DNA of 32,000 bases from Caldimicrobium thiodismutans. Its GTDB lineage: Bacteria > Desulfobacterota > Thermodesulfobacteria > Thermodesulfobacteriales > Thermodesulfobacteriaceae. This document shows positions 3,332 through 23,838 of this stretch, in pieces. The position numbers and the translations under genes were made by a program. Numbering within the stretch: the stretch's first letter is position 1; every line of letters begins with the position of its first letter. The notes under the pieces are model-generated. The model worked only from the letters and a program-made list of their open reading frames with translations. It had not been told where the DNA came from and ran no database searches. The DNA lies in the NCBI RefSeq assembly GCF_001548275.1, contig NZ_AP014945.1, positions 210,001 to 242,000 of the forward strand, read 5' to 3'.

Positions 3332-3332
3332 A

Positions 3333-5236: not shown

Positions 5237-5249
5237 TTACCTTCCCCCT

Positions 5250-5489: not shown

Positions 5490-5506
5490 AGGCCACCTCC
5501 ATTTTT

Positions 5507-5782: not shown

Positions 5783-5784
5783 GG

Positions 5785-7014: not shown

Positions 7015-7024
7015 TTTTCACCTC

Positions 7025-7462: not shown

Positions 7463-8387
7463 GCCAGAACCTCTCACTTAGATACTTATGTCCGCTATCT
7501 GGGAAGAGGGTAACAATTACTCCTTCCTTAAGGCTTGAAGCTATTTTAAGAGCTCCTGCAAGAGCTGCCCCAGAGGAGATCCCAACAAAAAGGGAAAGCC
7601 TTTCAAGTAAAGCCTTCACAAAGAAATAAGCCTCTTCAGTTTTAACAAAAATTACCTCATCAAGAATACTTTCATCGTAGATAGCAGGCTTTAAGGCACT
7701 GGGCATATGTTTCAGTCCTTCAATTCCATGAAGGGGACTATCTGGCTGAATCCCAACAAGCTTAATCTCAGGATTTTTCTCCTTTAGATACCTTCCCACT
7801 CCCATCATGGTGCCTCCTGTTCCAAGCCCTGCCACAAAGTGGGTTATTCTCCCTGAGGTGCCCTCCCAAATCTCAGGACCTGTGGTTTTATAATGAGCTA
7901 AATAATTGGCAGGATTACTATATTGATCTGCATAATAATAGAGTTCTGCCTCTCTTTCATAAAGTTCCCTTGCCTTGAGTATAGCCCCATCAATTCCCTC
8001 AAGGGGATCGGTAAGAATGAGTTCTGCCCCGAAGATCTTAAGAAGCTTGATTCTTTCAGGGCTTGCATTGGATGGAAGACACAGAGTTACCCCATAACCC
8101 CTCTGTCTGGCAAGAAGAGTATAGGCAATTCCCATGTTGCCAGATGTGGCATCAAGAAGTCTCTTTCCTGGTTTTAAAAGCTCCTCTCTTTCTGCAGATA
8201 AAATAATTTCCCTTGCAGGACGGTCTTTTACTGAGCCCCCAGGATTATACCACTCCGCCTTCGCATAAAGCTTAACCCCTTTATTACCTTTTAAGAAAAT
8301 TCCCAGATCAATAAGAGGAGTATTCCCAATCATGTTATATATATCTTTAAATATAAATAAATTTTTAAAACTTTGATCTTCTCTCAT
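7452..8387 (-). CDS. cysM: Cysteine synthase family PLP enzyme (CysM-like, probably thiocarboxylate-dependent)
   Basis: NPGGSVKDRPA PLP-lysine motif and a G.GTGGT loop. GGAG RBS before the ATG at 8387. Confidence 0.9.
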   Translation of the reverse strand: MREDQSFKNLFIFKDIYNMIGNTPLIDLGIFLKGNKGVKLYAKAEWYNPGGSVKDRPAREIILSAEREELLKPGKRLLDATSGNMGIAYTLLARQRGYGVTLCLPSNASPERIKLLKIFGAELILTDPLEGIDGAILKARELYEREAELYYYADQYSNPANYLAHYKTTGPEIWEGTSGRITHFVAGLGTGGTMMGVGRYLKEKNPEIKLVGIQPDSPLHGIEGLKHMPSALKPAIYDESILDEVIFVKTEEAYFFVKALLERLSLFVGISSGAALAGALKIASSLKEGVIVTLFPDSGHKYLSERFWHEL

Positions 8388-8571
8388 CTTTTTCTCCTTG
8401 TTTAAAGTTTTTTAAAGAGAAAAAAACGAGAAAATCTTATTAGAAGGTACAGGGACACTCCGGGCACATTCGCCCGGAACAACGGCAGAAAATATTGATA
8501 ATAATTTCAAAATTAAAATTTACCTTCATACTAATTTTAGTTTATAACTTAATTTTTAAATTTGTCAAGAG
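8388..8571 (-). promoter_or_regulatory. Promoter candidate plus structured leader of about 130 nt for the cysM operon
   Basis: On the minus strand: TTGACA (8563-8568), 16 nt spacer, TATAAA (8541-8546). The leader has a long-range GAAGGUA/UACCUUC pairing enclosing a CCGGGC-GAAUGU-GCCCGG hairpin. Confidence 0.3.
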
Positions 8572-9006
8572 CTAAAATATCAAAATCTTTTGAGAAGATT
8601 TTATAGCTCCAATAAGGTCTTTAAGAACACTTGTATTCCCAAGACTTGGGGACTGCCTGTCCCTCATTTTAAGACAGGTCAGTCAGGAAAAAAATTCTCC
8701 CCCATTTTGAAGGATTTTATAAAAAAGCTCTTTAAGATTAAATTGCGTGGTTTCTAATTCAAGAGCCTCAACACCCTCTCCTGTAAAGAAAATTTTTACT
8801 TTTTCTCCAGAGGATAACAAACCCTCTGCAATTCTCATGGCATTCCAGAGTCTCTCTAAATCTTTGGTAAGAATGATAAAGAGATAAAAACTTGAGGAGC
8901 TTCCAGCCCCACCTTCAGGAGGTCAACAAGCTGTCTGAGCCTGCCCTCCCCCAAATGGTGACGTAGGTCAAGCAAATCCAAAAGTATGCATGTTTTCCAT
9001 CTTCAT
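8572..9006 (-). CDS. DsrE/DsrF-like protein, candidate selenoprotein (or decaying paralogue) with three in-frame TGA codons
   Basis: AGGAGGTAAAAG-ATG at 9006. A single frame runs to the TAG at 8572 with TGA codons at 8968-8970, 8923-8925 and 8683-8685. Residues 40-144 align with the neighbouring DsrE-like gene, including U-x-x-C at the same position. The gene is absent from the ORF track. Confidence 0.4.
8653..8682 (-). promoter_or_regulatory. SECIS-like hairpin directly after the TGA at 8683-8685
   Basis: RNA CUG-A-CCUGUC-UUAAAAUGAGG-GACAGG-CAG begins at the first base after the UGA. Confidence 0.35.
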
Positions 9007-9032
9007 CTTTTACCTCCTGCAATAAGTTTTTA

Positions 9033-9344
9033 TTAAAAAAACACTAATTTATCGGAATTCATAACCAATTCATAAAAATCAATCATGCTTCCTTCTTCTC
9101 CCTGAGGCGAGAAACCTCTCGCCCTGGCACAGGCGCCTCAAGCAACAATCTTCCCATTTTTTTCAATAACCTCCCTCATAAGAGTAAGAATTTTTTCCTC
9201 ACTTAGGGTTAAAACCTCAACGCCTTTTCCCATGGCAAAGATTTTAACCTCATGGCCCTCTTCAAGGGCAACCAGTGAAAACCTCAAGGCATTGTAAAAA
9301 TTTTCAGCTTCAGAGGTGTTAATCACTACCCCAATTTTCCCCAT
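9033..9344 (-). CDS. DsrE/DsrF-like selenoprotein candidate (Sec at the TGA 9138-9140)
   Basis: The track ORF stops at TGA 9138-9140, but the same frame continues for 34 codons (GACARARGFSPQ...DKLVFF) to a TAA at 9033-9035. Read together this gives VA-U-GAC-ARARG, matching the C-x-x-C...RG active-site region of DsrE-like proteins. The start MGKIGVV at 9344 has a G-rich RBS. Confidence 0.65.
9101..9133 (-). promoter_or_regulatory. Bacterial SECIS-like stem-loop
   Basis: RNA CCUG-UGCCAG-GGCGAGA-GGUU-UCUCGCC-U-CAGG. The GGUU apical loop lies 22-25 nt after the UGA, as in known bacterial SECIS elements. Confidence 0.55.
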
Positions 9345-9472
9345 CTTCCCCCCCTTTATATTCAAATATCTAAATATTAGATTATATAAAACTATCAAAA
9401 AGTCAAGAGGGAAAAATTCTTTTCAAGAAGTTCCTTTTAAAAATTAGAGAAATTTAATTTCCCCAGACTTAA

Positions 9473-11023
9473 CTATGACATCTTTTCCCAGGAAAAATCT
9501 TTGATATTTCTCTCCCCTGAAGAAAACTCAATCCCAATAAGATAAATCTCCTTAGACTTCCCCTCATACTTCTTATGATAACCCTTCTCCTTAAGTTGAG
9601 CTAAGGCTTTAGCTTCTCCCTCCTCTCCCTCAAACACCTTGAACTCAAAAAGATAAACTCTTTCCCTATAGATCACTGTCAAATCTATCTGCCCCTTATT
9701 CGTTATATCCTCAGGTATCACCTCAAGCCCGGACCCACATAAAAAGGCATAAAAACAACTTACATAATACCCCTCATAACGGGAAAGCTCATTTTTCCTG
9801 AACCAATCATGGGGTATCCCTGCGTAAAGACCCTCAAGAACCCTCTTCATCTTCTCAAAATCCCTCTCCCTCACTGCCTCAATCATCTTAAGAGATAGCC
9901 TTGGTCTTTCTGAACTGAGCTGAGTAAAATAAGAAAAAAGAACTCTGTTTAAGCTAATTTTTACCTCTTTATTTGGATAAGAAAGCTTATAGAGAATTAA
10001 CCCTTCCTCTTCAATAGTTTCTTTAATGGTCAAATAACCTACCTGAAAGAGAAGGTTTTCTGGTTCAATATAGTCAAGGTCAAAGGTGCCAATAAGGTCA
10101 TCAGTTGCAGTTAGGTCTTCAAGCTCGGGAAGATAAAAACGCTTCTCCATTAAAAGCTTTACAAGAAAACTGGGAGTCCCAGTTTCAAACCAGTAGGGGT
10201 GAAAGGTTCTTTTCTCAAGATAAAGAAGCACATCAAAGGGGTTGTAAACTGGTTCCCCAAGCCAGGAATAACCATTATACCAGCATCTTATAAGCTCTAA
10301 ATCCTTATCTTGCAATTCTTCTCTGAAAACTTCTTCAAGCTCCTTTTGAGTGAATCCGCAAATAGTTGAATACTTTCTGCTTAAAGTAATATCATTTAAG
10401 AAATTTAAACCTGAGAAAATTGAAGACATATAAAATTTTAAAACCCCTGTTAAAAGAACAAATTTGAGATATCTATCAAGGGGCTTTAGAATAATGTAAA
10501 ATTTTACAAGAATATCTCTTATTCTTTTTGCAGTTTCTCTATCCTCAATGCAATCAAGAATAGGTTTGTCATACTCATCAATAAGAACTACAACTTTTTG
10601 CTTATATTTTTCATAACACTTAAGAATTAATTCCTCAAAACAGCCATCATAAAGGGTTTTTTCTGAACAGGGGACTCCAAGAGTTTCTTGATTTTTCTCA
10701 AGTTGTTCAAGAATATAAGTTATTAGATGTTCCTCTCCTTTGAAGGTTCTTCCCCCAAAACTTATATGAATAACAGGATACCTGACACTCCAGTCCCAGT
10801 TTTTCTCAAGATAAAGCCCCTGGAAAAACTCCTTTCTTCCAAGGAAGGCCTGTTTCAGGGTGTCCACAAAAAGGGATTTTCCAAATCTCCTTGGGCGAGA
10901 GAGAAAATAATAAGTTCCCTCTTCAACAAGTTTTGCAACAAATGGAGTTTTATCCACATAATAATAGGGCTCACTTCTAATCTTTTCAAAGCTTGAAATT
11001 CCAATGGGAAGTTTTTTCTGCAT
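9473..11023 (-). CDS. AAA-ATPase-like (PF09820-type) protein with C-terminal PD-(D/E)xK nuclease domain (PDDEXK_9/DUF1703-type)
   Basis: N-terminal LPIGISSFEKIR...YYYVDKT..I..L......YFLSRPRRFGKSL is the hallmark of this family. The C-terminal G.IDL.V......YLFEFK is the nuclease-fold motif. Confidence 0.8.
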   Translation of the reverse strand: MQKKLPIGISSFEKIRSEPYYYVDKTPFVAKLVEEGTYYFLSRPRRFGKSLFVDTLKQAFLGRKEFFQGLYLEKNWDWSVRYPVIHISFGGRTFKGEEHLITYILEQLEKNQETLGVPCSEKTLYDGCFEELILKCYEKYKQKVVVLIDEYDKPILDCIEDRETAKRIRDILVKFYIILKPLDRYLKFVLLTGVLKFYMSSIFSGLNFLNDITLSRKYSTICGFTQKELEEVFREELQDKDLELIRCWYNGYSWLGEPVYNPFDVLLYLEKRTFHPYWFETGTPSFLVKLLMEKRFYLPELEDLTATDDLIGTFDLDYIEPENLLFQVGYLTIKETIEEEGLILYKLSYPNKEVKISLNRVLFSYFTQLSSERPRLSLKMIEAVRERDFEKMKRVLEGLYAGIPHDWFRKNELSRYEGYYVSCFYAFLCGSGLEVIPEDITNKGQIDLTVIYRERVYLFEFKVFEGEEGEAKALAQLKEKGYHKKYEGKSKEIYLIGIEFSSGERNIKDFSWEKMS

Positions 11024-11112
11024 AACTTTATTTTAAGGCCTCTTTTTTCAAAAATCAATGTTAGCTCTTTCTTTATGCAATTCCCTTTTAAACCAGGGCA
11101 TTTTTTTCATTA

Positions 11113-11228
11113 CTGTAGGGGCAGGTCTAAGGTGTCTGCCCCATGTAGAGGTTTAAAATTTTAAACCCCTATAGCCACATTGATGCTAAGAAACACATAA
11201 CAGGCAAACATATAGGTTTGCCAGGGTG
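11113..11228. repeat. Hairpin-repeat cluster (same family as 2296-2370, opposite orientation)
   Basis: GGGGCAG/CTGCCCC (11118-11142), the 18-nt palindrome GGTTTAAAATTTTAAACC (11150-11167), and GGCAAAC/GTTTGCC (11203-11222) with a flanking ACACATAACAGG. Confidence 0.7.
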
Positions 11229-11255
11229 CAACCCCTTTTTAAAGGAGAATCTCAC

Positions 11256-11283
11256 TTGAGAAAAATTTTCAATTATTTATAAT
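11256..11283 (+). promoter_or_regulatory. Sigma70-like promoter candidate for the helicase-MTase operon
   Basis: TTGAGA (11256-11261), 16 nt spacer, TATAAT (11278-11283). Confidence 0.3.
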
Positions 11284-11314
11284 GATTTAAAGCCTTGGAG
11301 GGAAAACAATCTGG

Positions 11315-14300
11315 TTGAGTAATGATCTTATAATAAGGGAGAGCGCTGAGATGAAGGCACACACAGATTTAACTTTCATAGTAAATGAACCAGGGCATAC
11401 TCTTAAAGATAGATTTGAGAAACTGATAAAAGATTGCAAATTTTTTGATTGTTTGGTTGCTTATTTTTATATAAGCGGGTTTCACGCCATATCCAAAGCA
11501 CTTGAAAAAACTGAGAGAATAAGAATTCTTATTGGGCTTGGGATAAATAAAGAAGCCTATGAGTTAGTTAAAAGCGCAAAAGATAGACCTCAAAATTTAT
11601 GTCAACTCTCTCATTCAGAAACAAAAGAAATCATTGAAAAGGCGATAGTAGATGAGTTGGCTGATTCAGAAGATAGTCTTCAAGTTGAAGAGGGAGTTAA
11701 AAAATTTGTTGAATGGATAAGATCAGAGAAATTACAAATAAGGGCTTATCCTTCTCAAACTCTTCATGCGAAATTATATATTATGACTTTTAAAGAAGGT
11801 GATAGAGATATAGGAAGAGTAATTACTGGTTCAAGTAATTTTACCTATTCAGGCCTTGTGGATAATCTTGAATTTAATGTAGAGCTTAAAAACCGAGCAG
11901 ACTATGAATTTGCAAAAAGTAAATTTGAAGAATTATGGAGAGATTCAGTTGATGTAAATGAAAAATTTATTCAAACAATAAATGAAAAAACCTGGCTTAA
12001 TCAAAATATTACCCCTTATGAGCTTTATCTTAAATTTTTATACGAATATTTTAAAGAGGAATTATCAAGAACAGATGAAATATTTACAAAATATTTGCCA
12101 GAAAATTTTAAAAGATTTGAATATCAAGAGCAAGCAATTTTAAATGCTAAAAAGATACTGGAAGAGTATGGAGGTGTTTTTATTTCCGATGTAGTAGGTC
12201 TCGGGAAAACCTATGTTGCCACTATGCTTGCAGCGCAACTTGATGGAAGAACGCTTGTTATAGCACCACCAGCGCTTCTCAATGAAAACAACCCAGGGTC
12301 ATGGATAAATATTATTCGTGACTTTCATATACCTGCTAAATGCTGTTCAATTGGCAAACTTGATGAAGCAAAAGCATTTATAGAAAGATATGAAAATACA
12401 GATCATCCTGTAAAAAACATAATTATAGATGAATCACATCGTTTTAGAAATGAAACTACAATTAGTTATGAAGATATTGCTGAAATTTGTCGAGGAAAAA
12501 GAGTTATATTGGTTTCAGCAACCCCTTATAATAACTCACCAACGGACATTCTTGCCCAGATAAAGCTCTTTCAGAATCCGAGAAAAAGCACTATCCCTGG
12601 TGTCCCAAACCTTGAAGATTTCTTTGGTAAACTTGAGGCAAGATTAAAGAAAGTTGACAGGCAGAAAGATTATAACAAATTTCTTGAGATAACAAAAATT
12701 AATGCAAAAGAAATACGTGATAAAGTTTTGAAATATTTAATGGTTAGAAGAACAAGAAGTGAAATTGAAAAATATTTTGCAGAGGATCTGAATAAAAACA
12801 ATGTTAAATTTCCAGATGTAGAGAACCCAAAGCCCTTTTATTATCAGTTAAATGATGATGAAGATAGAATTTTCATGGAAACAGTTAAACTCATAACACA
12901 AGATTTCAACTATGCTCGTTATAAACCATTACTTTATTTAAAGAAATCAATTTCCCCGCTTGAAGCGCAGTCTCAAAGGAATATGGGGGGTTTCATGAAA
13001 GTGCTTCTTGTAAAGCGTTTGGAGAGTAGTTTCTATGCATTTAGAAAAAGTATTGATAGATTTATCAGGTCATATGAGACGTTTATTAAAGAATATGAAA
13101 AAGGAAATGTATATATAAGCAAAGGATATATAAACAAAATTTTTGAACTTTTAGAACAAGGAGATGATGAAACAATTCAAAGATTAATAGATGAGGGAAA
13201 GGCAGAAAGATATGATAGTGAAGATTTCAGTCCTGATTTTGAAAAAGATTTAAAGAATGACCTTGAAATTTTGAAAAAGATAAAATCAATGTGGGAGAAT
13301 ATAAAAAGAGATCCAAAAATTCAAAAGTTAATCAACGAATTAAAAAATAATTCTATTCTTAAAAATAAAAAAATAATTATCTTTACTGAATCTAAAGAAA
13401 CGGCAGAGTATTTAACTGAGCATATAAACAGCGAAATTGGAGAAATAGCTTTGCTCTTTCATGGTAGCTCTTCTGAAAGTATCCGAGATAAAGTTATAGA
13501 AAATTTTGATGCAAGGGCAAAAAATAAGAGGAGTTATTATAGAATTCTTGTTACAACTGAGGTTCTCTCAGAGGGAGTTAATCTTCATCAGTCAAACATT
13601 GTAATAAATTATGATATACCCTGGAATCCTACAAGGCTGATGCAGAGAGTTGGAAGAATTAACAGGATAGACACTCCGCATGATAGAATTTACATTTTTA
13701 ACTTTTTCCCTACAAGGCAAGCGGATTCTGAAATTGAACTTACAAATATTGCTCGCTCAAAAATAGAGGCATTTTTAACATTACTGGGTGGTGATTCAGC
13801 CATTTTAACAGAGGGAGAACCAGTCTCTTCTCATGAACTCTTTGATAAGCTTCTTTCAAAGAAAACCATCACTGAGGAAGATGAAGAGGAGGAAAGTGAG
13901 CTGAAATACTTAAGAATTATTGAAGATATTCGTGATAAAAATCCAGAACTTTTTGAGAGAATAAAAGGACTTCCAAAGAAAGCTCGCTCTGCAAAGGCAG
14001 GATGTAACACAGGCACTCTTGCCTATGAAAGTAACACAGACAAGAATGTCTGTGCTACCAGTGATGCCTTACTTACATTTTTTAGAAAAGGAAAACTTAT
14101 GAAATTTTTTTTATCCAATAAAGAAAAAACAATTGAGCTTGATTTTATAACTGCTGCAAAAATTCTTGAAAGCACACAGGATGAAAAAAGAGTAAAGCTT
14201 CCCCTTAAAAGTTATTATGAATTGCTTAATAAGAATAAAAATGCTTTCTTTAATGCAACTATGGAAGAGGAAATGATTGAGACGACTGGTAGACGAGGTG

Positions 14301-14617
14301 GTGGAAGTAGTTCTGTTAAACTTCTAAAAATTTTAAAAGCAACACAAAAGAATAGTAAGCAACTGACAGAAGAACAAGAAGACTATCTTAAAAAAGTAAT
14401 AACCCGTTTAGAAGAAGGTTCCTTACCTAAACAGACAGTTAAGAGGATACTCAGTGAACTAAATAAATTAGGAACAGAGATTCAAAATCCCTTAAAGGTT
14501 ATTGGAATTCTTCAGAGAGAAATATCTCCTGCTTTTCTTAAAAGCCATTATGCAGAAACCTCAGCAATAACAGAAGGAAAAAGGGAAGTTATACTATCAC
14601 TTTATTTAGCAAGGTGA
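11315..14617 (+). CDS. PLD-family (single HKD) nuclease domain fused to an SNF2/Rad54-type helicase
   Basis: HKD motif LHAKLYIM (H at 11765) with GSSNFT (11828-11845). Helicase motifs DVVGLGKT (12198-), IIDESHRF (12428-), SATPYNN and QRVGRINRI. The TTG at 11315 is the track start, and the ATG at 11351 with an AAGGGAGAG RBS is more likely. Confidence 0.9.
14004..14058 (+). repeat. Hairpin-repeat element inserted in frame inside the helicase ORF
   Basis: GTAACACAGGCActctTGCCTATG followed by CACAGACA-AGAA-TGTCTGTG (14035-14054). This is the same element as at 22064-22083 and 23207-23226. It translates as [19 protein letters not shown]. Confidence 0.75.
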
Positions 14618-14622
14618 TAAAT

Positions 14623-14916
14623 ATGACAAAAATTGAAGAGATTAAAGAAAAAATAAGAGAACTAAAACCTGTGCTTCAAGAAAAATATAAAGTTAGCGAG
14701 ATAGGCATCTTTGGCTCTTATGTGAGAGGAGAGCAGAAAAAGAAAAGCGACCTTGATATCCTTGTTGATTTTTATGAAGTTCCTGACCTGTGGTCATTCA
14801 TTGAACTTCAAGATTTTCTATCAAAAGAATTAAAAGTTAAAGTTGACCTTGTTATGAAATCCGCCCTTAAGCCATATATAGGAAAAATTATCTTACAAGA
14901 GGTAATTTATATATGA
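14623..14916 (+). CDS. Minimal nucleotidyltransferase (MNT, MntA-type antitoxin)
   Basis: [10 protein letters not shown]...SDLDILV (GS...DxD). AAGGTGA RBS before the ATG at 14623 (the track gives a GTG at 14614). Confidence 0.85.
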
Positions 14917-15260
14917 GAGAAATAAGAGACTATCTGATAGACATAAAAACTGAATGTGAATATTTAATGAGCAAAAGTAAAAATTTAGACTATGAAAGTT
15001 TTATCGTAAATGAGGAACTGAAAAGAGCATTTGTAAGAAGCCTTGAAATCATTGGAGAAGCCAGTAAGCACATTCCAAAAGAGTTGAGAAGAAAATACTC
15101 TCAAATCAGATGGAAAAGTGTTATAGGAATGAGAAACATTTTGATTCATGAATATTTTGAAGTTGATTACATGGTTTTGTGGAAAGTCATTAAAGAAAAA
15201 ATACCAGAGTTGTATGAAGTGATAAAAAATATGCTTGAAGAGGTAAACAAAAATGAATAG
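14913..15260 (+). CDS. HEPN domain (DUF86, HepT-type) toxin
   Basis: Rx4H motif in [13 protein letters not shown] overlap with the MNT stop. Confidence 0.85.
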
Positions 15261-18200
15261 AGAACAAGCAAAAAACTTGATAATTGAAACATTTGAAAAT
15301 TCTTTTGATAAAGATAAATTTATTAAATTTAACACTAATTTACTAAAAACTTATGATAGAAATAAAGCTCTTGAACCAAGAAGCGGAATTCAAGGGATAA
15401 CTGAAAGATATCTTGATTTTATTGCATCCTGGGAAAGAATTGGTAGATATGTAGATAAAGATGGCAAAAAGATTGATATATTGGTTGTGAAATTAAAGAG
15501 GGAAACATCCCTTTTCAGAGCAAGAACTGCTCAGAGAAATTTCGTTGCTGAATATTTAAAAGGAATCCTTGGAACAACTACAGAGAAAGATGCGGCCCTT
15601 GTAGCTTTTATATCACCAGATTTAGAAGACTGGCGATTTTCCCTTGTCAAATTAGATTATCGCTTTGAGGAGACCCCTTCTGGCAGAGTTAAAGCCAAAG
15701 AAGAATTTACACCTGCCAAAAGATGGTCCTTCCTTGTTGGAAAAAATGAAAAAAGCCACACCGCTCAATCAAGATTTTTACCCATACTTGAAAATGATGA
15801 TTTCAAACCAACCCTTGAAGATTTAGAAAAAGCCTTTGATGTTGAGGTTGTAACAAAAGAATTTTTTGAAAAATATAGAAACCTCTTCATAAGAACAAAA
15901 CTTGAACTTGATGAAATTGTTAAGAAAGATAAAAAAGTGAGAAAAGAATTTGAAAGAAAGAATATCAATACTATTGATTTTGCCAAAAAACTACTTGGTC
16001 AAATTGTATTTCTCTATTTCCTACAAAAGAAGGGTTGGTTTGGTGTTGAAAAAGGAAAACCTTGGGGAACAGGTCCAAAAGACTTTATAAGGAGATTGTT
16101 TAACAAAGAATTTGGAGATTATGAAAACTTTTACAACGATATACTTGAACCACTTTTTTATGAAGCATTAAGAACAGATAGAAGCGTGGATGACCATTAT
16201 TACAGTAGATTTAATTGCAAAATTCCTTTCTTAAATGGTGGTCTTTTTGACCCTATTAATGATTTTGACTGGGTAAATGTTGATATTCTTTTACCTAATG
16301 AGCTTTTCTCAAATAAAAATAGAACAAAAGAAGGTGATATTGGAGATGGTATTCTTGATGTCTTTGATAGATTTAATTTCACTGTAAATGAAGAAGAGCC
16401 ACTTGAAAAAGAAGTAGCCCTTGATCCTGAGCTTCTTGGAAAAATTTATGAAAAACTAAATGCCATAAGACCGGATAACTTTGATGAATATGTAAGAGTT
16501 CTAAAATCTGGTAAAAAAGGTGAAGAAACAAAGTTTAATAAAGAATATGGAGTTTATTACACGCCAAGAGAAATTGTCCATTATATGTGCCAGGAAAGTT
16601 TGATAAATTATCTTGAAATAGAACTTCAAGGGAAGGTCAAAAAAGAAGATATTGAAGAATTTGTAAGATATGCTGATTTAATTTTAGAGAATGAAAGAAC
16701 AGTTATAAATAAAAGAAAAGAAACAAAGACATATAAGCATAAAATGCCAGAAAGTATAATTGAAAATGCACAACTTATTGATGAACTTCTTGCTAATATT
16801 AAAATTTGCGACCCAGCTGTTGGTTCTGGTGCTTTTCCTATTGGAATGATGCATGAGATAGTAAAATTAAGACAATTGCTATCAGTATATCTTAATAAAC
16901 CGATAAACAATTATGACTTAAAGCGCCATTGTATAGAAAATTCTCTTTACGGAGTAGATATTGACCCAGGAGCAGTTGAGACTTGTAAGTTAAGATTCTG
17001 GCTTTCAATGATTGTGGATGAAGAAGATTTTAACAACATAAAACCCCTTCCTAACCTTGATTATAAGGTTGTCTGTGGGGATTCACTTTTAGGATTTCCT
17101 GAAAATTGGGGTTCAAATATTGAAAAGGAAATTGAAGATTTAATGGATAGATACTTTGAAGAAGCTCATCCTAAAACCAAATCAGAATTAAAACAGTTAA
17201 TTGATGGGAAAATAAAATGGCGGTTAGAAAATTCAGAAAAAAATTTTGGATACAAAATTAATTTTGATTTTAGATTATTCTTCCCAAAGGTATTTAAAGA
17301 AAAAGGTGGTTTTGATATAGTGATTGCAAATCCGCCGTATGTGAGGCAGGAAAGGATAAAACATTTAAAACCTAATCTTCAAAAATTTTATAGGGACTTC
17401 TTTAACTCCACTTCTGACCTTTACACTTACTTTTACAAAGAATCATACGATATTTTACGAAATGATGGGATACTTTGTTTTATATCAAGCAACAAATGGT
17501 TGAGGGCAAAGTATGGTAAGAATTTAAGAAAACTTTTGAAAGAAAACACAAAAATAATAGAACTTATAGATTTTTCTGGCTATTCAGTCTTTGAACAAAC
17601 TGTTGATACGAATATAATTCTCTTTCAAAAGAGAAGACCAGAGAAACACCATGCTTTAAACTTTGTGAATGTAAAAAGTGATGTTGATGATGTAATAAAC
17701 TACATTCAAGATAATAAACAATCCATTTTACAAGAAAAACTCTCTGATAATGCTTGGACACTGGCGGAAGATAAAGTCCTTACATTGAAAGAAAAGATAG
17801 AAAAGATTGGAAAACCACTTAAAGAGTGGGATGTGAAAATTTATTTTGGAATTAAGACAGGCTTTAATGAGGCATTCATTATTGATACAGAGACAAGAAA
17901 CAAGATTTTAGCAAACTGCAAAACAGAAGAAGAAAGAAAAAGGACAGAAGAGATAATAAAACCGGTTTTGAGAGGAAGGGATATTGAAAGATGGAGGTAT
18001 AAGTGGGCAGGATTGTGGTTGATAGGAACATTTCCAGCTTTAAATCTTAACATTGATAACTATCCAGCGTTAAAAGAATATCTAAAATCATTTGGAGATA
18101 GATTAAATCAGGATGGAAAGCCAGGGCATCGTAAGAAAACTAATAATAAATGGTTTGAGACACAGGATAATATTGCATACTACCCAGAATTTGAAAAGGA

Positions 18201-18630
18201 AAAGATTGTGTGGAATAGGATTACAGAAGAAATTGTATTTTCTTATGTAGAGGCTAACTATTATGTTTTAGATAGTACTTTTATGCTTACAGGAGAAAAT
18301 TTAAAGTTTTTGATATCTATATTAAATTCTAATGTTATTAGTTTTTGGATAAAACTTTCCGCAGCCACATTGGGGAAAGGTAATTATGGTGCCAAAATTT
18401 ATATTGAAAATTCTCCCATTCCACCCATCACACCACAAAACCAACCCATTGTCAAGCAACTAGAAAAACTTGTAGATAAAATCCTAACCCTAACCCAAGA
18501 CCCAACCTACGCCACAGACCCACAAAAACAGGAAGAAGTTAAAAAGCTTGAAAAACAAATAGACCACCTTGTGTATAAGCTTTATAATTTAACAGAGGAG
18601 GAGATTAAAATAATTGAAGGAGAAAAATAA
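15253..18630 (+). CDS. Large gamma-class N6-adenine DNA methyltransferase (Eco57I/PglX/YeeA-like) with a TaqI_C-like target-recognition domain
   Basis: Motif [11 protein letters not shown] (about 16809-16838). Motif IV NPPY (17329-17340). [16 protein letters not shown]...[12 protein letters not shown]-terminal [17 protein letters not shown] tail. No convincing D...ExK nuclease triad was seen by eye in the N-terminal 450 aa. Confidence 0.9.
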
Positions 18631-20387
18631 TGGCAGATAAACAAGATTTATGGAATTTAAGTAATAGACTTTCAACGAAAACGAAACTTGAAATTTTAGA
18701 AAAGATTTTTGATGTATGGCTGACCATTTGGAACAATCAAAAATGGGTATCAAATGAATGGTATATCATAGATTTATTTGCTGGTAGAGGTAAGTATAAT
18801 GATGGAACTTATGGTTCACCACTTATTTTTCTTGATAAAATTTTAAAAAAAAGAATAGACAAAAAATTGAGAGAAAATATCAAAATTAAATGCTTTTTTA
18901 TAGAACTGAATAAAGATAACTTTGCTTGTCTAAAAGAAAACATTGAAGAATTTCTTAATAAAAATCCCGAGACAAATAAAGTAGTTGAATCTCAAGTCTA
19001 TATTGGAGATTGTAATGAAAAAATACCTGAAATAATAAGACAGATTAATAACACTCCAAAAAATCCTCTTTTTGTTTTAATAGACCCAACGGGTTTACAA
19101 ATTAAGAGAAAGACTGTTGATTTAATGGTTAAATTAAATAACCCGAAAGATATCATGTTCAATTATATTTTGGAAGGTGTTCGTCGCACCAGTGGTGTAG
19201 CAAAAAAGAGAAGATCAGGAACCGAATTAACAGAAAAAGAGATTAAGACTATAAATACTCTAAAAGAATTTATTGGGGATGATATTAATTTAATAGGAAA
19301 TGACCAAAAAATGTTAGAAGATTTTGTTGGCTCTGTTTTTACCTCCAAAGGGCTTCATGTTGTGGGGTATGATATCAAATATCCAGACCGCAATGATACT
19401 TTGTATTATCTTCTTTATGCATGCAAAAAACCCAATATAGCTGAAATTGTTAAAGATGTTTATGCACGACAGAAAGAAAAGATTTTAGGGAGAACATTGT
19501 TTGGTGGTAAAGATTTCTATAAAGAAAAGATTTTTGAAGCTTCACCCACAGTTATTAATAGAAAAACTCTCTTATATCAAACAAAAGTTGAATATGGAGA
19601 TTGGACGATAAATCACATTGTTGGTTGTAAACATGGTTGTAAGTTTCCTTGTTATGCGATGATGATGGCAAAAAAATTTGGTTGGGTTAAAGATTATGAA
19701 GATTGGAGAAATCCAAAGATTGTAGCGAATGCTTTAGAACTTCTTGAGAAAGAGATACCGAAATATAAAAATTACATTGATTTTGTTCATTTATGTTTTA
19801 TGACTGACCCTTTTATGTATGATTATAAAACAAAAATGATAATACCAGAAATAAAAGAGTTAACATTAAATATTATTGAAAGATTAAATAAAGAAGGTAT
19901 AAGAGTAACAACTTTAACGAAAGGAATTTATCCTGAAGACTTGTTAAATAAAAGAAAATTTCTGGAAACTAATGAATATGGGATAACACTTGTTTCCTTA
20001 AATGATGATTTTAAAAATAAATTTGAACCTTATTCTGCACCATATGAGGAAAGGATAGCAGCTTTAAAAAAACTTGCTGATAATGGATTAAAAACATGGG
20101 TAAGTATTGAGCCTTATCCAGTTCCTGCTTTAGATCCTCAATCTGCAGATATTGAGAGAATCTTAAATAAAGTTAGTTTTGTAAAAAAAATAATCTTTGG
20201 AAAACTAAATTATAGAAGGTTGGCAGAATATAATAATTCTTATTGTGCCTGGAAAAATAATGAAGAATTCTATAGAGAAATGGCTCAAAAAGTAATTGAG
20301 TTTTGCAAAAAGAATGATATAAAATATCATATAAAATTTGGGACCCCCTTGAGTAAAAATGAAAGTGTAAATATTTTTAAAGAATGA
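18630..20387 (+). CDS. Fusion of a TcmP-like (three-Cys-motif partner, Rossmann/MTase-like) N-domain with a radical-SAM-like (COG1533/SplB-like) C-domain
   Basis: N-domain: KTKLEILEKIFDVWL, IIDLFAGRG and VLIDPTG. C-domain: W.IN..VGC333KHGC337KFPC341YA, then TTLTKG, ITLVSLND..FEPY.APYEERI.ALKKL...G and SIEPYP. The start overlaps the MTase stop (TAATG). Confidence 0.7.
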   Translation: MADKQDLWNLSNRLSTKTKLEILEKIFDVWLTIWNNQKWVSNEWYIIDLFAGRGKYNDGTYGSPLIFLDKILKKRIDKKLRENIKIKCFFIELNKDNFACLKENIEEFLNKNPETNKVVESQVYIGDCNEKIPEIIRQINNTPKNPLFVLIDPTGLQIKRKTVDLMVKLNNPKDIMFNYILEGVRRTSGVAKKRRSGTELTEKEIKTINTLKEFIGDDINLIGNDQKMLEDFVGSVFTSKGLHVVGYDIKYPDRNDTLYYLLYACKKPNIAEIVKDVYARQKEKILGRTLFGGKDFYKEKIFEASPTVINRKTLLYQTKVEYGDWTINHIVGCKHGCKFPCYAMMMAKKFGWVKDYEDWRNPKIVANALELLEKEIPKYKNYIDFVHLCFMTDPFMYDYKTKMIIPEIKELTLNIIERLNKEGIRVTTLTKGIYPEDLLNKRKFLETNEYGITLVSLNDDFKNKFEPYSAPYEERIAALKKLADNGLKTWVSIEPYPVPALDPQSADIERILNKVSFVKKIIFGKLNYRRLAEYNNSYCAWKNNEEFYREMAQKVIEFCKKNDIKYHIKFGTPLSKNESVNIFKE

Positions 20388-20394
20388 ATACAAT

Positions 20395-20479
20395 GAATTT
20401 ATTCGAAATCTATCCTCAAAACCAACCTATTGTCCAGCAAATAGAAAAACTTGTAAATCAAATCCTCTCTCTTGCCCAA
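20395..20479 (+). pseudogene. Displaced MTase 3'-end fragment, part 1
   Basis: Nucleotide-level similarity to 18404-18490. The peptide YPQNQPIVQQIEKLVNQILSLAQ compares with [23 protein letters not shown]. Confidence 0.7.
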
Positions 20480-20480
20480 T

Positions 20481-20564
20481 GTAACACAGGCATTTCTGCC
20501 TGTGGAAGTAATACATATTCATGTATGAAAGTAACACAGGCAATCTTGCCTGTGGAGTCAACTA
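20481..20564 (+). repeat. Cluster of three hairpin repeats
   Basis: CACAGGCA-tttc-TGCCTGTG (20485-20504), ATACAT-attc-ATGTAT (20511-20526), CACAGGCA-atct-TGCCTGTG (20535-20554). Confidence 0.8.
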
Positions 20565-21785
20565 TGAAAAATTATAAGCATAGTAAAAACCTCCTTGAGA
20601 AGGAATATTATGATAAGTAGAAGGATCAAAATATTTTTTATATTTGAGAAGTGCATAAATAATTCTCAAAAGTTTATGAGCGGTGGCCAAAACCGCTTTT
20701 TTATAAGGCAATCCTTGTCTTTTTCTCCTCTCAAAATAGCTCCAGAATATAGGATTGTGTCTGATTACATTAATACTCATAAGCCATACAACCCTTCTCA
20801 AATGCCTATTTCCTCGTTTAGAAATCTTGCTCTTTCCTTTAAAATTTCCAGATTCATAAACAGCAGGATCAAGTCCTGCATAGGCAATCAATTGTTTGTA
20901 CGATTGAAATCTCTTTATATCCTGAATTTCAGCAAGAAAATGAAGCGCTGTAATTTCTCCAATTCCCTCAATAGAAAGGAGGATATCAAGGTCCTGGCAA
21001 GCGGAAATCTCTTTACAAGCGGATTTAAGAAGTTTTTCAATTTCTTTAAGGGTTTCCTGAAGGAAGAAGAGTTCTTGAATGGTTCTGGAAAGAATATATT
21101 CTTTTGCGGGCCAATTTTGAGCTATAGAATATTCAGCAAGGGCTTTTATTTCTTTAGCAGAAATGGCGGGTTTTTTACCTTTTTGAGAGGAGAGTATATT
21201 TTCAATTTCCTCAAGAGAGGCTTTTTTAATAGCTTTAGCAGAGGGGAATTTTTCAAGAAGTTTAAGAATGGAGGTATTGTAGATATTGACGGTTCTTTCA
21301 AGTTCAGGGAAGGTAACGACCACAAGTTTTTCGAGGTTATTTTTTCTTTTAGCGATTTCTTGAGAAATTCTTTCTCTTTCTCTGGCAAGGTCTTTAAATT
21401 CTTCAGAAGTAAAGGCCTGGGGAGGTAGTTTTTGATGGAATTGAGAAAGGAAGATGGCGATAGTTTTAGCGTCTATGGCATCGGTTTTGGTTTTTCTAAG
21501 AGAGAGTTTAGCAAAATTTTTAATGAGAATTGGATTAAGGATGACGCAAGTGAAGTTATGATTAACGAGGTAGGTGATGAGATTAAGATGATAACAACCA
21601 GAGGATTCAATACCGATAAGGATGGATTTTTTTAAGCCTTGAGGGAGAGCTTTTGTAAAGGATTTGATGCCCTGGTAGTCAAGAGGGTAGGACTGGTTAA
21701 AGAGGACATTTTGAGAGGAATCAATGAGGCAGGCATGAAAGAAGTTTTTGGAGACATCAAGGCCTACAAAGTAGGTGTAGTGCAT
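20562..21785 (-). CDS. IS110-family (DEDD/RuvC-like) transposase
   Basis: N-terminal VGLDVSK. C-terminal SI.GIG..TA..FLAEI.D..RF....QL.AYAGL.P....SG. GGAGG RBS. The TAG stop at 20562-20564 sits at the IS/flank junction. Confidence 0.9.
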   Translation of the reverse strand: MHYTYFVGLDVSKNFFHACLIDSSQNVLFNQSYPLDYQGIKSFTKALPQGLKKSILIGIESSGCYHLNLITYLVNHNFTCVILNPILIKNFAKLSLRKTKTDAIDAKTIAIFLSQFHQKLPPQAFTSEEFKDLARERERISQEIAKRKNNLEKLVVVTFPELERTVNIYNTSILKLLEKFPSAKAIKKASLEEIENILSSQKGKKPAISAKEIKALAEYSIAQNWPAKEYILSRTIQELFFLQETLKEIEKLLKSACKEISACQDLDILLSIEGIGEITALHFLAEIQDIKRFQSYKQLIAYAGLDPAVYESGNFKGKSKISKRGNRHLRRVVWLMSINVIRHNPIFWSYFERRKRQGLPYKKAVLATAHKLLRIIYALLKYKKYFDPSTYHNIPSQGGFYYAYNFS

Positions 21786-22037
21786 AGGTGGACCTCCTTT
21801 TATTTTGTTTTAGTAAGGCAGGGGACCTGCTCACCAATCCTCCAACTTGACGAGGGTTTACAAACCCAACCAACTTATAATGGTTTAAGCAGGCAGGCAA
21901 CAAACTCCACTGAGGGCTTAAAAGCCCAGGTAAAATGGAGTTGCCCTGCCTTACTCTCTTTTCCATGTTTCAATTATAACCCCTATATATGCAAAAACTT
22001 AGGTAATAACATAACAAATTTTTCGTAGGAGGTAAAA
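20565..22037 (-). mobile_element. IS110-family insertion sequence (boundaries approximate)
   Basis: It interrupts a hairpin-repeat unit that is intact at 23141-23226. Flank homology ends near 20564 and resumes near 22038-22041. It carries one DEDD-type transposase and a structured non-coding end of about 250 nt upstream of that gene. Confidence 0.8.
21813..21954 (-). ncRNA. Candidate IS110 bridge RNA
   Basis: The closing stem GTAAGGCAGGG (21813-21823) / CCCTGCCTTAC (21944-21954) encloses two stem-internal-loop-hairpin modules. These are AACTCC/GGAGTT around GGGCTT-AA-AAGCCC, and CCTGCT/AGCAGG around GGGTTT-ACA-AACCC. The loop segment AGGTAAAATG (21928-21937) is identical to the IS terminus at 22030-22039. 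Confidence 0.5.
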
Positions 22038-22040
22038 TGC

Positions 22041-22085
22041 ACTCCTATGTGTGAAAGTGAAAACACAGACAAGAATGTCTGTGCT
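22041..22085 (+). repeat. Hairpin repeat (right half of the unit split by the IS)
   Basis: ACTCCTATGTGTGAAAG...CACAGACA-AGAA-TGTCTGTG (22064-22083), nearly identical to 23183-23226. Confidence 0.8.
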
Positions 22086-22211
22086 ACAACAGACCCACTA
22101 AAACAAGCCTAAGTAAGAGACCTTGAAAAACAAATAGACCACCTTGTTTATGAGCTTTATAATTTAACAGAGGAAGAGATTAAAATAGTTGAAGGAGGTA
22201 AAATAGAATGA
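22086..22211 (+). pseudogene. Displaced MTase 3'-end fragment, part 2 (contains an in-frame stop)
   Basis: [38 protein letters not shown] compares with [39 protein letters not shown] at 18506-18630. It ends in an ATGA overlap with the next gene, as an intact MTase would. Confidence 0.75.
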
Positions 22212-22705
22212 GTTATCTAATTTATGCGGCGTATGGTTCAAACCTTTTAAAAGAGAGGTTTATGGTTTATATAAAAGGTGGAATGTATCGTGGCTGGGAA
22301 TACTCGGGAAGCAAAGACAAAACTGAACCTCAAGATTTAGGGTGGATGTATGTTCCGCATAGATTATATTTTGCTAAAAGCTCTTCAAAATGGGCCAACA
22401 AAGGAGTAGCATTTTTAAGTTGTGAAAAGGAAAAAGATAGTAGTTTTCATGCGGTTGTCAGGCTTTGGAAGGTATCGCAGCAACAGTTTGAAGACATTAA
22501 GAAACAAGAAGGACGATGGTATGATGTAGAATTAGAATTGGGAGAAAAGGACGGTTTTATAATAAAAACTATCACTGGTTGTTGGAAAACTGAAATCAAT
22601 AAACCTTCAGAAGAATATCTTAATATAATTAGGCAGGGTCTAAAGGAAACAACAAAGGGATGGTCCGAGGATAAAATTGAGGAATATCTCAGGAAATTTT
22701 TGTAA
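22208..22705 (+). CDS. GGCT/AIG2-like (gamma-glutamylcyclotransferase fold) protein
   Basis: N-terminal YAAYGSNL (compare YFAYGSNL) and a downstream ...KKQEGRWY... (compare LD..EG..Y). 165 aa. Confidence 0.5.
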   Translation: MSYLIYAAYGSNLLKERFMVYIKGGMYRGWEYSGSKDKTEPQDLGWMYVPHRLYFAKSSSKWANKGVAFLSCEKEKDSSFHAVVRLWKVSQQQFEDIKKQEGRWYDVELELGEKDGFIIKTITGCWKTEINKPSEEYLNIIRQGLKETTKGWSEDKIEEYLRKFL

Positions 22706-22987
22706 TTATAGCGCTTATATATCAACTCTTTCTTTCCTACGAAGGGATGCTTTCATGCAAAGGGTTAATTCCTTGATTTTTCAACAAAAGGATATTTTAT
22801 AAGAAAGCCTTTTGTCTTTTGCCTCTTACTTCTACTTCAACTTCCAGATCTTCCTTTCGTAAGCTTACATCTATGACGCACAGGGCTATGCCTTTGCCAT
22901 GGTTGGAGAAAAGGTAACAAGCCCAAGGAGTTTGCACTCAAGCTTATGGCTATGTAAGGCCTCTTTTGTTACATACTCCTTTTTAAG

Positions 22988-23057
22988 CTTCACACCCTGA
23001 CCCAGGACCAAGACACAGCCCCACAAAAAGCCTTAAGTTAAGGAACTTGAAAACAAA
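22988..23057 (+). pseudogene. Third, truncated and degenerate copy of the MTase 3' end
   Basis: CTGACCCAGGACC...CCCACAAAAAGCC..AAGTTAAGGAACTTGAAAACAAA parallels 18478-18560. It contains stops and is cut off by the repeat head at 23058. Confidence 0.5.
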
Positions 23058-23226
23058 ATGCATAAATTCATATCCTTACAAGAAAAAAGTAAGGGTGGTA
23101 AAAGAGGAATTAGATATCTATACAAAAGAGGTTTTACAAGTCTGAAAGTAACACAGGCATTCCTGCCTGTGAAAGTAAACTACACTCCTATGAGTGAAAG
23201 CAAAAACACAGACAAGAATGTCTGTG
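23058..23226 (+). repeat. Repeat head element plus an intact hairpin-repeat unit
   Basis: The head ATGCATAAATTCATATCC..AAGGGTGGTAAAAG is related to 28531- and 2383-2425 (reverse complement). Hairpins: CACAGGCA-ttcc-TGCCTGTG (23152-23171) and CACAGACA-AGAA-TGTCTGTG (23207-23226). Confidence 0.75.
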
Positions 23227-23297
23227 CTACAACAGACCCACAAAAACAAGCCCAAGTTAAAGAGCTTGAAAAACAAATCGACCAGCTTGTGGTTTAG
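23227..23297 (+). pseudogene. Fourth copy of the MTase 3' end (fragment)
   Basis: TTDPQKQAQVKELEKQIDQLVV* with nucleotide similarity to 18506-18580. Confidence 0.65.
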
Positions 23298-23474
23298 CTT
23301 TATAAGTTAATGATTTTTTTGCCTTTACAAATAATATTTTGTAGAAAAATGAAAAAACATGGAGGCTGTGAAGGTTAAAATTTGCTCCTAATAAATATTA
23401 TCAGTGTTCAATCGCCCTTGATGAAAAGGGGATGATTAGTCCTTCTGCTTTTGGAAAATAACAAGCCTCGGGGC

Positions 23475-23502
23475 TTGAAAACTTATAAAGAATCTTTATA
23501 AT
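23475..23502 (+). promoter_or_regulatory. Promoter candidate with an overlapping palindromic operator for the ArsR-family gene
   Basis: TTGAAA (23475-23480), 16 nt spacer, TATAAT (23497-23502). Perfect inverted repeat ATAAAGA-A-TCTTTAT at 23485-23499. The ATG lies only 12 nt after the -10 element. Confidence 0.4.
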
Positions 23503-23514
23503 CAATTCTTTAAG

Positions 23515-23838
23515 ATGAAAAATTTCAAAAAAAAGATTGAAATTCTTAAATTGATTGCTCATCCTGTAAGAATAAGGCTTCTTCAAGAATTGAAGAAAAA
23601 TATTCACTGTGTAAGTGATCTTGTTAAAATTTTAAAACTCAGACAGTCAACCATTTCCCAGCACTTAGCCCTCCTTCGCAAGGGAGATCTTGTAGATTAT
23701 TATGTGGAAGGAAAAGAAAGATGTTATTTTATCAAAGACCCCTTTGTTTCGGAATTGCTTGAATTTTTAGAGAGAGAACACTATAAAGCCCTTGAAGTCC
23801 CGAAATGTTGTCCCATAACTAAAAAAAGGTTAAAGTAA
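23515..23838 (+). CDS. ArsR/SmtB-family HTH transcriptional regulator
   Basis: LKLIAHPVRIRLLQEL......V.DL...L.L.QSTISQHLALLRK..LV. Confidence 0.85.
   Translation: MKNFKKKIEILKLIAHPVRIRLLQELKKNIHCVSDLVKILKLRQSTISQHLALLRKGDLVDYYVEGKERCYFIKDPFVSELLEFLEREHYKALEVPKCCPITKKRLK

Follow-up and report, generated by a model that had tools for sequence, protein, structure and literature searches.

A PLD-SNF2 nuclease-helicase and an adenine methyltransferase as the conserved core of a probably composite, restriction-modification-like operon in Caldimicrobium thiodismutans

We examined a five-gene operon (11315..20387) within a 32,000-nt stretch of Caldimicrobium thiodismutans DNA (contig NZ_AP014945.1, positions 210,001 to 242,000 of the forward strand; below, "the window" is this whole stretch). 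A sequence-only reading had proposed that the five genes form a single, undescribed, modification-based defence system. Our analysis leads us to a different conclusion, to which we give a probability of roughly 0.68: the genes are not one system, and the operon is a composite of a two-gene core resembling a restriction-modification (RM) system, a toxin-antitoxin pair and a mobile radical S-adenosylmethionine (SAM) gene. The conserved core consists of a PLD-SNF2 nuclease-helicase and an N6-adenine methyltransferase (MTase). The operon genes are as follows.

11315..14617, + strand: gene 1, PLD(HKD)-SNF2 nuclease-helicase, predicted restriction subunit
14614..14916, + strand: gene 2, MNT (MntA-like nucleotidyltransferase antitoxin)
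14913..15260, + strand: gene 3, HEPN (HepT-like RNase toxin); PF01934 1.5e-26, R74-x4-H79
15253..18630, + strand: gene 4, N6-adenine MTase of 1125 aa, predicted modification and recognition subunit
18630..20387, + strand: gene 5, TcmP domain fused to a radical SAM domain resembling spore photoproduct lyase (TcmP-rSAM), passenger or accessory gene

Read base by base, the junctions agree with the earlier description of five co-oriented open reading frames (ORFs) whose stop and start codons overlap or abut: GTGA at 14614-14617, ATG at 14623 being an alternative start (genes 1 and 2), ATGA at 14913 (genes 2 and 3), ATG at 15253 with TAG at 15258-15260 (genes 3 and 4) and TAATG at 18628-18632 (genes 4 and 5). 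No convincing terminator-like site was found on the + strand between the operon genes. The domain calls made earlier for all five genes were upheld by Pfam, NCBIfam and PADLOC profile searches, and the residue numbers quoted with them (H151/K153, DESH, NPPY, C333/C337/C341) are correct.

Results

The nuclease-helicase and the methyltransferase form a conserved pair

To define which of the five genes belong together, six MTase homologues (57-98% identity) were looked up for their gene neighbours, and further relatives were reached via gene 5 and the helicase (L-numbers such as L001 or L091 label the loci or contigs that carry relatives). All six homologues are preceded by a gene of 1064-1110 aa with PLDc_2, SNF2 and Helicase_C domains, and in L086, L087, L088/89 and L092 this helicase gene overlaps the MTase start by 8 nt. 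In L090 (Stygiobacter) a DUF559 gene (7012-7395) lies between the two, and L091 repeats the arrangement of the window, keeping the whole five-gene set at 96-100% identity. In Thermocrinis minervae the pair stands alone between a Methyltrans_RNA gene and hisG, that is, as a self-contained two-gene island. More distant helicase-MTase pairs occur in L011, L022, L030, L045 and L099, while the helicase-seeded search added a Parabacteroides plasmid, with an SNF2 gene followed by an N6 methylase, and a Synechocystis plasmid (L097), with the helicase, a VapBC pair (8499-9129) and the MTase in that order. What lies 3' of the MTase varies (a KAP NTPase, hisG, DUF3800, an AAA_15 fragment or DarT). Across about ten loci, the N-terminal family of gene 4 was never seen without the helicase.

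The sequence-only reading had made its model depend on the helicase and the radical-SAM gene both being conserved neighbours of this MTase family. The helicase is such a neighbour; the radical-SAM gene is not, as TcmP-rSAM is missing from five of the six non-redundant loci seeded with the MTase. Together with the lineage-specific occurrence of MNT/HEPN, this counts against the five genes as one system. What survives of the proposed self/non-self model is its two-gene part, in which DNA is marked by an MTase and cut by a PLD-SNF2 protein that translocates, since this fits both the pairing and the motifs; its extension to five genes does not hold.

One could still maintain that the five genes make up one integrated modification system, in which gene 5 adds a second, radical-SAM-dependent mark needed for discrimination by PLD-SNF2. 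The genes are tightly coupled, the full set recurs in L091, both SAM-dependent domains of TcmP-rSAM are intact and of types that act on nucleic acids, and the gene directly follows the helicase and MTase in L007, L011, L022, L045 and L099. However, besides its absence from most MTase-seeded loci, one of which has the pair alone amid housekeeping genes, TcmP-rSAM is also found with unrelated RM types or with no RM genes at all, MNT/HEPN is absent or located elsewhere in other lineages, and duplicated MTase tails point to a secondary insertion of TcmP-rSAM. We regard this explanation as very improbable.

The composite reading assigns nuclease and motor functions to gene 1. Its protein matches PLDc_2 (residues 46-208), ResIII/SNF2-rel_dom and Helicase_C in Pfam, and carries a single H151-x-K153...GSSN172 motif together with GLGKT295, DESH372 and QRVGRINR777. 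HxK...GSSN, GLGKT, DExH and QRxGRxxR are kept in eight helicases, with SNF2 motifs I, II, III and VI conserved, and the PADLOC "HKD+Snf2" model C3a139 matches at 1.3e-46. A PDB sequence search with gene 1 returned generic helicase domains only. Since the homologues begin near residue 13, ATG 11351 may be the true start of the gene.

On this basis the following scheme can be proposed. The 1125-aa MTase would recognise a short sequence and methylate host DNA, while PLD-SNF2 would be the restriction subunit, acting as a dimer because a single HKD motif must pair with that of a second copy, in the manner of Nuc, BfiI and MANTIS MtsD. ATP hydrolysis by the SNF2 motor would drive translocation along, or remodelling of, DNA, and cleavage would take place where the MTase reports unmethylated sites. 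The domain content, the catalytic motifs and the strict pairing with overlapping codons are direct observations; from them we infer the physical complex, the dimerisation, the dependence on unmethylated sites and the ATP-driven cleavage. On present evidence the pair would be a widespread ATP-dependent restriction system made of two proteins, its nuclease motor being PLD-SNF2.

The nuclease is more plausibly placed in PLD-SNF2 than in the methyltransferase

Gene 4 is a gamma-class N6-adenine MTase with its own TaqI_C target-recognition domain (TRD) and a family-specific N-terminal region (residues 1-459). Pfam matched Eco57I (2.9e-44) and TaqI_C (6.5e-12); the MTase motifs stand in gamma order (YYTP435, DPAVGSGAF520, NPPY693), and motifs X, I and IV are invariant among 14-19 homologues. 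The PADLOC model REase_MTase_IIG (PDLC03596) covers the protein over its full length at 1328 bits and is the sole model that matches residues 1-459. A PDB sequence search with gene 4 gave only CamA/BseCI, in the C-terminal half. With a gamma N6-adenine MTase and a TRD in one polypeptide and a match to the curated model, gene 4 resembles a Type IIG enzyme. A Type IIG system is a single gene, and this is not what we see: a PLD-SNF2 gene is in the operon of every relative inspected.

It could nevertheless be argued that the MTase is a self-sufficient Type IIG enzyme with a divergent N-terminal nuclease, PLD-SNF2 being a separate or auxiliary protein comparable to BrxHII or DrmD. The PDLC03596 match includes residues 1-459, and the first ~170 residues are predicted to form an alpha-beta-beta-beta-alpha-beta arrangement with invariant E15, D75 and K133. 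In addition, Cj0031-like Type IIG genes have been listed both as solitary genes and with a PLD-SNF partner (Milman et al., PMC9881135). Yet no PD-(D/E)XK, HNH or GIY motif is conserved in the alignment of gene 4 homologues: the invariant N-terminal residues are E15, R62, Y66, D75, R91, R95, N96 and K133, and no (D/E)xK follows the invariant D75. Nor did an AlphaFold model of residues 1-470 (pLDDT 74) give a significant fold match in the PDB (best E 0.086), and the N-terminus matched no nuclease fold there, including those of the solved Type IIG/IIL enzymes. The constant company of the helicase in about ten loci, the 8-nt gene overlap and the conserved nuclease motif that the helicase itself holds likewise speak against a self-sufficient MTase, which we consider improbable. 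Because neither a nuclease motif nor a nuclease fold was found in the MTase, and because the MTase is obligately paired with an HKD-bearing protein, the predictions favour PLD-SNF2 rather than the MTase as the restriction subunit.

Many MTase homologues share 67-79% identity with the query over its first 70-78% and diverge beyond, a pattern that fits swapping of target-recognition domains at their C-terminal ends. Some homologues of ~1180-1460 aa (P0144, P0166, P0197, P0207, P0213) bear a PF01797 (Y1 transposase, IS200-like) domain, which is intriguing beside the hairpin repeats in the MTase tails of the window (see below).

The MNT/HEPN pair is specific to the Caldimicrobium lineage

Genes 2 and 3 encode what appears from its motifs and profile matches to be a type VII-like toxin-antitoxin pair. 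Gene 2 matches PF01909 (7.6e-18, 65 bits), has the motifs GSYVRG34 and SDLDILV45 and is hit by PADLOC PDC-S09; gene 3 matches PF01934 at 93 bits and is HepT-like. The two are adjacent and carry the GSx(n)DxD and Rx4-6H motifs of Type VII pairs, while their NCBIfam scores lie below the equivalog cut-off of 60 (44.5 bits for MNT with NF047752, 42.2 for its partner). As in MntA/HepT type VII systems the genes overlap and keep the catalytic motifs; what differs is their lineage-specific position in an RM operon. Helicase and MTase are separated by MNT/HEPN in just two sequences, the window and contig L091 (96-98% identical), and in L022 an MNT/HEPN pair is found 3' of TcmP-rSAM instead. The helicase-MTase junction has received independent small-gene insertions in different hosts, namely MNT/HEPN in the window, VapBC in the Synechocystis plasmid and DUF559 in Stygiobacter.

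Gene 5 encodes a widespread, predicted two-domain enzyme

Gene 5 scores 119.7 bits with TIGR04474 (TcmP; cut-off 53) and 49.6 bits with PF04055 (Radical_SAM; cut-off 29.5). The three-Cys, radical-SAM-like domain described earlier is therefore confirmed, C333, C337 and C341 being invariant in 15 homologues, with the qualification that the spacing is CX3CX3C rather than the canonical CX3CX2C. The PF04055 score and the Cys triad place the domain in the radical SAM superfamily; cluster binding and SAM cleavage are predictions. Further invariants are DLFAGxG (motif I), E92, D127 and a DPxG that replaces (D/N)PP(Y/F); in all, the alignment has 150+ invariant columns, with SAM motif I and the Cys triad intact. 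An AlphaFold (AF2) model (pLDDT 82) shows two domains. Foldseek matched the N-terminal half to class I SAM methyltransferases, the closest being the 23S rRNA m6A methyltransferase RlmJ (E 1e-7), and the C-terminal half to spore photoproduct lyase (E 1e-4). From this combination of an RlmJ-like fold and a spore-photoproduct-lyase-like barrel we predict that gene 5 encodes a nucleic-acid base-modifying or base-repairing enzyme. We found no functional study of TcmP, DUF5131 or PDC-M30/M41 in the literature searched.

The family is large (>120 full-length matches at 56-82% identity), with hosts in Thermotogota, Atribacterota, Aquificota, the candidate phyla radiation (CPR), Nanoarchaeota and others. 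At many CPR and archaeal loci the strong match is confined to the radical SAM half, which suggests split forms. TcmP-rSAM relatives are all but missing from viruses (1 in 2.9 million IMG/VR viral contigs vs 102 in the genome collection), and among 50,697 phage and 72,556 plasmid records the matches were only partial and distant. A phage or plasmid origin was dropped on account of these sparse, distant matches. A distant TcmP homologue occurs in the temperate Gordonia phage Jablanski (L093 2474-3598; gene 43, "methyltransferase"), between the integrase and the immunity repressor. Prophage-encoded defence genes commonly reside in regions of this type.

Gene 5 favours restriction operons but also occurs elsewhere

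We then asked where the gene resides. Of 85 gene 5-seeded loci, ~8 have the helicase and/or an Eco57I-type MTase upstream; in L007, L011, L022, L045 and L099 TcmP-rSAM directly follows the helicase-MTase pair, and among the MTase-seeded loci the sister contig L091 is the one case in which it comes after the MTase. Other RM neighbours are of unrelated types: Type III-like Mod/Res (in L019 Mod ends 10 nt before TcmP-rSAM; L016, L020 and L021 have Res-like helicases), Type I HsdR upstream (L032, L042), a Type ISP-like MTase nearby (L018) and GmrSD (L003-5). There are non-defence settings as well (L001, L008, L023, L098, L100), with neighbours such as sugar transporters, a C25 peptidase gene and alaS. 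In the GmrSD (Type IV restriction) contigs a conserved 43-aa ORF (L003 3365-3496, L004 7880-8011, L005 8771-8902) overlaps the TcmP-rSAM start directly after GmrSD; the TcmP-rSAM protein of these three contigs bears an NCBI name from Defluviitoga tunisiensis.

A census compared the two ORFs closest to the gene on either side at 41 loci (129 proteins) with a distal set of 140 ORFs more than 5 kb away at the same loci. The commonest Pfam families among the nearest ORFs were ResIII (7), SWI2_SNF2, N6_N4_Mtase, Eco57I and N6_Mtase (4 each). No RM family reached 2 among the distal ORFs, where ABC transporters, glycosyltransferases and HSP20 came first. We take TcmP-rSAM to be a gene that is autonomous, cell-encoded and highly mobile, and whose affinity for restriction operons is real without being exclusive. 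In the composite scheme it would be an optional RM add-on that recurrently lands in RM operons, mostly directly after the MTase gene. That this very large, conserved enzyme family is so often at home in restriction operons, usually just after the MTase, offers a route to its chemistry.

Between L091 (12378-13007) and the window (18630-19259), TcmP-rSAM shows 100% identity over its first 210 residues, against 96-98% for the four proteins encoded upstream; in this small sample the excess fits either a more recent arrival or a stronger constraint.

Duplicated methyltransferase tails bracket gene 5

Remnants of earlier MTase tails had been claimed downstream of the operon. They are real (20408-20488, 22086-22202 and 23229-23309), and lie among the following features.

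18427..18627, + strand: live MTase C-terminal tail, aa 1059-1125 (67 residues), whose sequence is copied downstream
20408..20554, + strand: decayed tail copy A, aa 1059-1085 (20408-20488) and two hairpins, cut off by IS110
20562..21785, - strand: IS110-family transposase gene (PF01548, PF02371), inside an old MTase tail and amid hairpin repeats
22047..22202, + strand: decayed tail copy B, a hairpin and aa 1087-1125 with an internal stop (22086-22202), 77% over 39 aa, E 1e-11
22208..22705, + strand: 165-aa ORF beginning 6 nt past tail copy B
23152..23309, + strand: decayed tail copy C, two hairpins and aa 1087-1113 with a stop (23229-23309)

The IS110 element splits tail copies A and B, and the 165-aa ORF adjoins copy B in the way that gene 5 adjoins the live tail. 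Pfam, NCBIfam and PADLOC searches gave no match for this ORF, which is probably a passenger acquired earlier at the MTase 3' end. Comparable brackets, in which gene 5 is flanked by a tail and a decayed tail, are present in L007 (3111-3230/5094-5213, 90% aa identity between copies), in L010/L011 (81%; L011 8082-8300/10283-10501) and in L022 (9837-9992/11837-11992, 71%), and in L009, L026 and L033 a tail remnant lies immediately 3' of gene 5. The tails are more alike within a locus than between loci, and in L011 the repeat extends ~35 nt into gene 5. No convincing flank duplication was found around TcmP-rSAM in non-Eco57I contexts, including Type I and Type III. A 176-aa ORF located 6.6 kb 3' of the live tail in L090 terminates in a tail-like motif.

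Because the MTase tails are duplicated around gene 5, TcmP-rSAM appears to have been inserted secondarily. From the sequence comparisons we infer that the MTase 3' end is a recurrent insertion site at which passengers stack, for which Campbell-type recombination via that conserved tail is a conceivable mechanism. From the stacked tails it seems that defence loci can grow by taking up passenger genes at a single fixed site.

A 20-nt hairpin, CACAGRCA-N4-TGYCTGTG, accompanies the tails. It occurs seven times in the window vs 0 expected, always within the island (14008, 14035, 20485, 20535, 22064, 23152 and 23207): two copies lie in the helicase gene and the rest in the linker of each decayed tail, with IS110 inserted among them. 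The two copies in gene 1 are inserted in frame (14008..14054), encode ...NTDKNVCAT... and are lacking in homologues, which show an alignment gap at aa 897-917. The peptide TDKNVCAT is also present in the tail remnant of L009 (an uncultured archaeon).

What brings gene 5 to this site can be explained in two other ways. It may be a selfish single-gene cassette with no defence role, spread by RecA-dependent (Campbell-type) recombination via the MTase tail and similar conserved 3' ends, and found in RM operons merely because these transfer often and tolerate insertions. Its 56-82% identity across bacterial and archaeal phyla, the direct repeats of the MTase tail that bracket it in the window, L007, L010/11 and L022, and the accumulation of other passengers at this site (ORF 22208 in the window, several genes in L090) would all suit a cassette of this kind. 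Such a cassette does not readily account for the strong conservation of both catalytic domains, with their 150+ invariant columns, for the failure to find flanking duplications in Type I or Type III contexts, for the listing of split-form relatives as PADLOC defence-island candidates or for the position of the Jablanski TcmP-like gene between integrase and immunity repressor. A purely selfish gene is in our view unlikely. The other possibility, also rather unlikely in our view, is that TcmP-rSAM is a portable accessory enzyme specific to RM operons, with two SAM domains, that sits directly after the adenine MTase (Type I, III, IIG-like or ISP-like) and travels from host to host as a cassette, the conserved MTase tail serving as its attachment site; it would then bring a second layer of chemistry to the DNA, by a further modification or a reversal of the methyl mark or by the sensing of SAM depletion.

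Several points weigh against a composite operon with a two-gene core. About one quarter of the close TcmP-rSAM relatives directly follow an Eco57I-type MTase and are translationally coupled to it, and the after-MTase position recurs in Type III-like loci; such recurrence could reflect a functional link to adenine methylation rather than hitch-hiking. The neighbour census covers ~40 loci, many of them on short contigs of metagenome-assembled genomes, and a BLASTP version of it (RM genes 12/129 near vs 3/166, Fisher p = 0.006) used a reference set that came from near neighbours and is biased. PDLC03596 spans the N-terminus of the MTase, where the modelled alpha/beta region of ~170 residues with E15 and D75 might be a divergent nuclease. 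Finally, the literature searched yielded no experimental study of the bare two-gene architecture, for which restriction activity is deduced from domains and gene order.

Relation to known systems

The label "undescribed" given to the operon was overstated: gene 4 matches PDLC03596, a PLD+SNF context has been tabulated (PMC9881135), and the TcmP/three-Cys combination is an NCBIfam family. The architecture of the core pair is already known, mislabelled as a single-gene Type IIG enzyme, and current annotation tools would call this locus just that. In the table of Milman et al. 2023 (PMC9881135) a PLD+SNF gene beside a Type IIG-like (Cj0031-like) gene appears as a context of programmed inversion. 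As here, the PLD+SNF2 coding sequence is immediately 5' of a large Eco57I/TaqI_C MTase-TRD fusion; unlike there, we found no inverted TRD cassettes, and the window has direct tail repeats and inserted genes instead.

A precedent for the pair is MANTIS (Gao_RL, BREX-related type 2), in which the dimeric PLD-helicase effector MtsD, with one shared active site, restricts DNA left unmarked by the MTase, and in which the DUF499 AAA+ protein MtsA and the small MtsB are needed to load the MTase; it is described in a 2026 preprint (bioRxiv 10.64898/2026.09.23.753747) as well as in a survey of that year. Compared by architecture, both systems have an effector in which a PLD nuclease is joined to a helicase-like ATPase of the SF2 class, but MtsA and MtsB were not found among the window ORFs and the MTase here carries its own TRD. 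PLD nucleases with helicase-like motors are also established (PMC5861437), SauUSI and CglI/NgoAVII among them; SauUSI differs in that it targets modified DNA.

Class 1 DISARM likewise combines an SNF2 protein (DrmD), a PLD protein (DrmC) and an N6-adenine MTase (DrmMI), and genes 1 and 4 give partial DrmD and DrmMI matches. These fall far short of the family cut-offs (NF038317 DrmD 156 vs 610, NF038319 DrmC 17 vs 133), the PADLOC DrmMI match covers only residues 634-1113 of gene 4, and PLD and SNF2 are fused here. BREX PglX is, like gene 4, a large Eco57I-type adenine MTase with a similar C-terminal "LYGLTEEEI" tail; again the scores are low (NF033452 92.5 vs a cut-off of 500, NF033451 63.8 vs 400) and residues 1-435 of gene 4 are left uncovered. 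Profile searches of the window ORFs found neither DISARM DrmA and DrmB (DUF1998) nor BREX PglZ, BrxC, BrxA/B and BrxL, in agreement with the sequence-only reading. Membership of DISARM, BREX or MANTIS was dropped, the signature genes being missing from the window. The two-gene system looks like a simpler relative of DISARM and MANTIS that could be reconstituted easily, here from a thermophile.

Type ISP, III and I enzymes resemble the pair in that a gamma N6-adenine MTase and its TRD work together with a nuclease and an SF2 motor. Here these functions are distributed over two proteins, the motor is of SNF2 type, and a PLD nuclease takes the place of Mrr/PD-(D/E)XK.

For gene 5 the relevant comparison is with the TcmP and three-Cys pairs of TIGR04474: its N-terminal half is a bona fide TcmP, and it is joined to a three-Cys domain, in keeping with how that family is defined. 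PADLOC's candidates PDC-M30 and PDC-M41 have separate A (TcmP) and B (DUF5131) proteins, whereas the two are fused here; model A matches only residues 5-177 of gene 5, and model B gives a weak match (2e-5 over 90 residues). DUF5131 itself (PF07505) reaches 19.3 bits over its first 90 residues, below the cut-off of 28.9, the partner domain here being an SPL-like Radical_SAM.

Promoter-like site and flanking genes

Upstream of the operon lie two further features.

11256..11283, + strand: promoter-like TTGAGA-16-TATAAT, within the 290-nt gap 5' of gene 1
9473..11023, - strand: AAA-ATPase_like + PDDEXK_9 gene (Pfam 1.5e-66 and 2.7e-21), divergent from the operon

The promoter-like site is present where it had been reported and is the top-scoring one of the region (11/12 match). 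Since the number of such sites in 10900-23600 equals chance (49 observed vs 50 +/- 6.6 expected from shuffling), it is only suggestive of an operon promoter. The operon has a GC content of 0.309 vs 0.39-0.41 in the flanks.

As for the proposed defence-island setting, the ATPase-nuclease gene and the IS110 element are there; the remaining flanks are housekeeping, which makes the label generous. The AAA-ATPase_like + PDDEXK_9 gene has no PADLOC or NCBIfam matches. It is found beside the operon in L091 too (3191-4741) and is absent beside the other MTase homologues inspected; it may travel with the island. The next genes upstream differ, being DsrE/PALP in the window and TP_methylase/GcpE in L091. 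In the window these comprise ThiF-rhodanese, JAB and two PALP genes (4097-8387, - strand) together with DsrE (9138-9398), which gave generic PADLOC E1-E2/JAB matches. A CBASS-like reading of the ThiF and JAB genes was dropped, their neighbours being PALP enzymes and DsrE, and we read the cluster as a housekeeping sulfur-carrier (CysO/MoaD-type) cluster rather than a defence locus.

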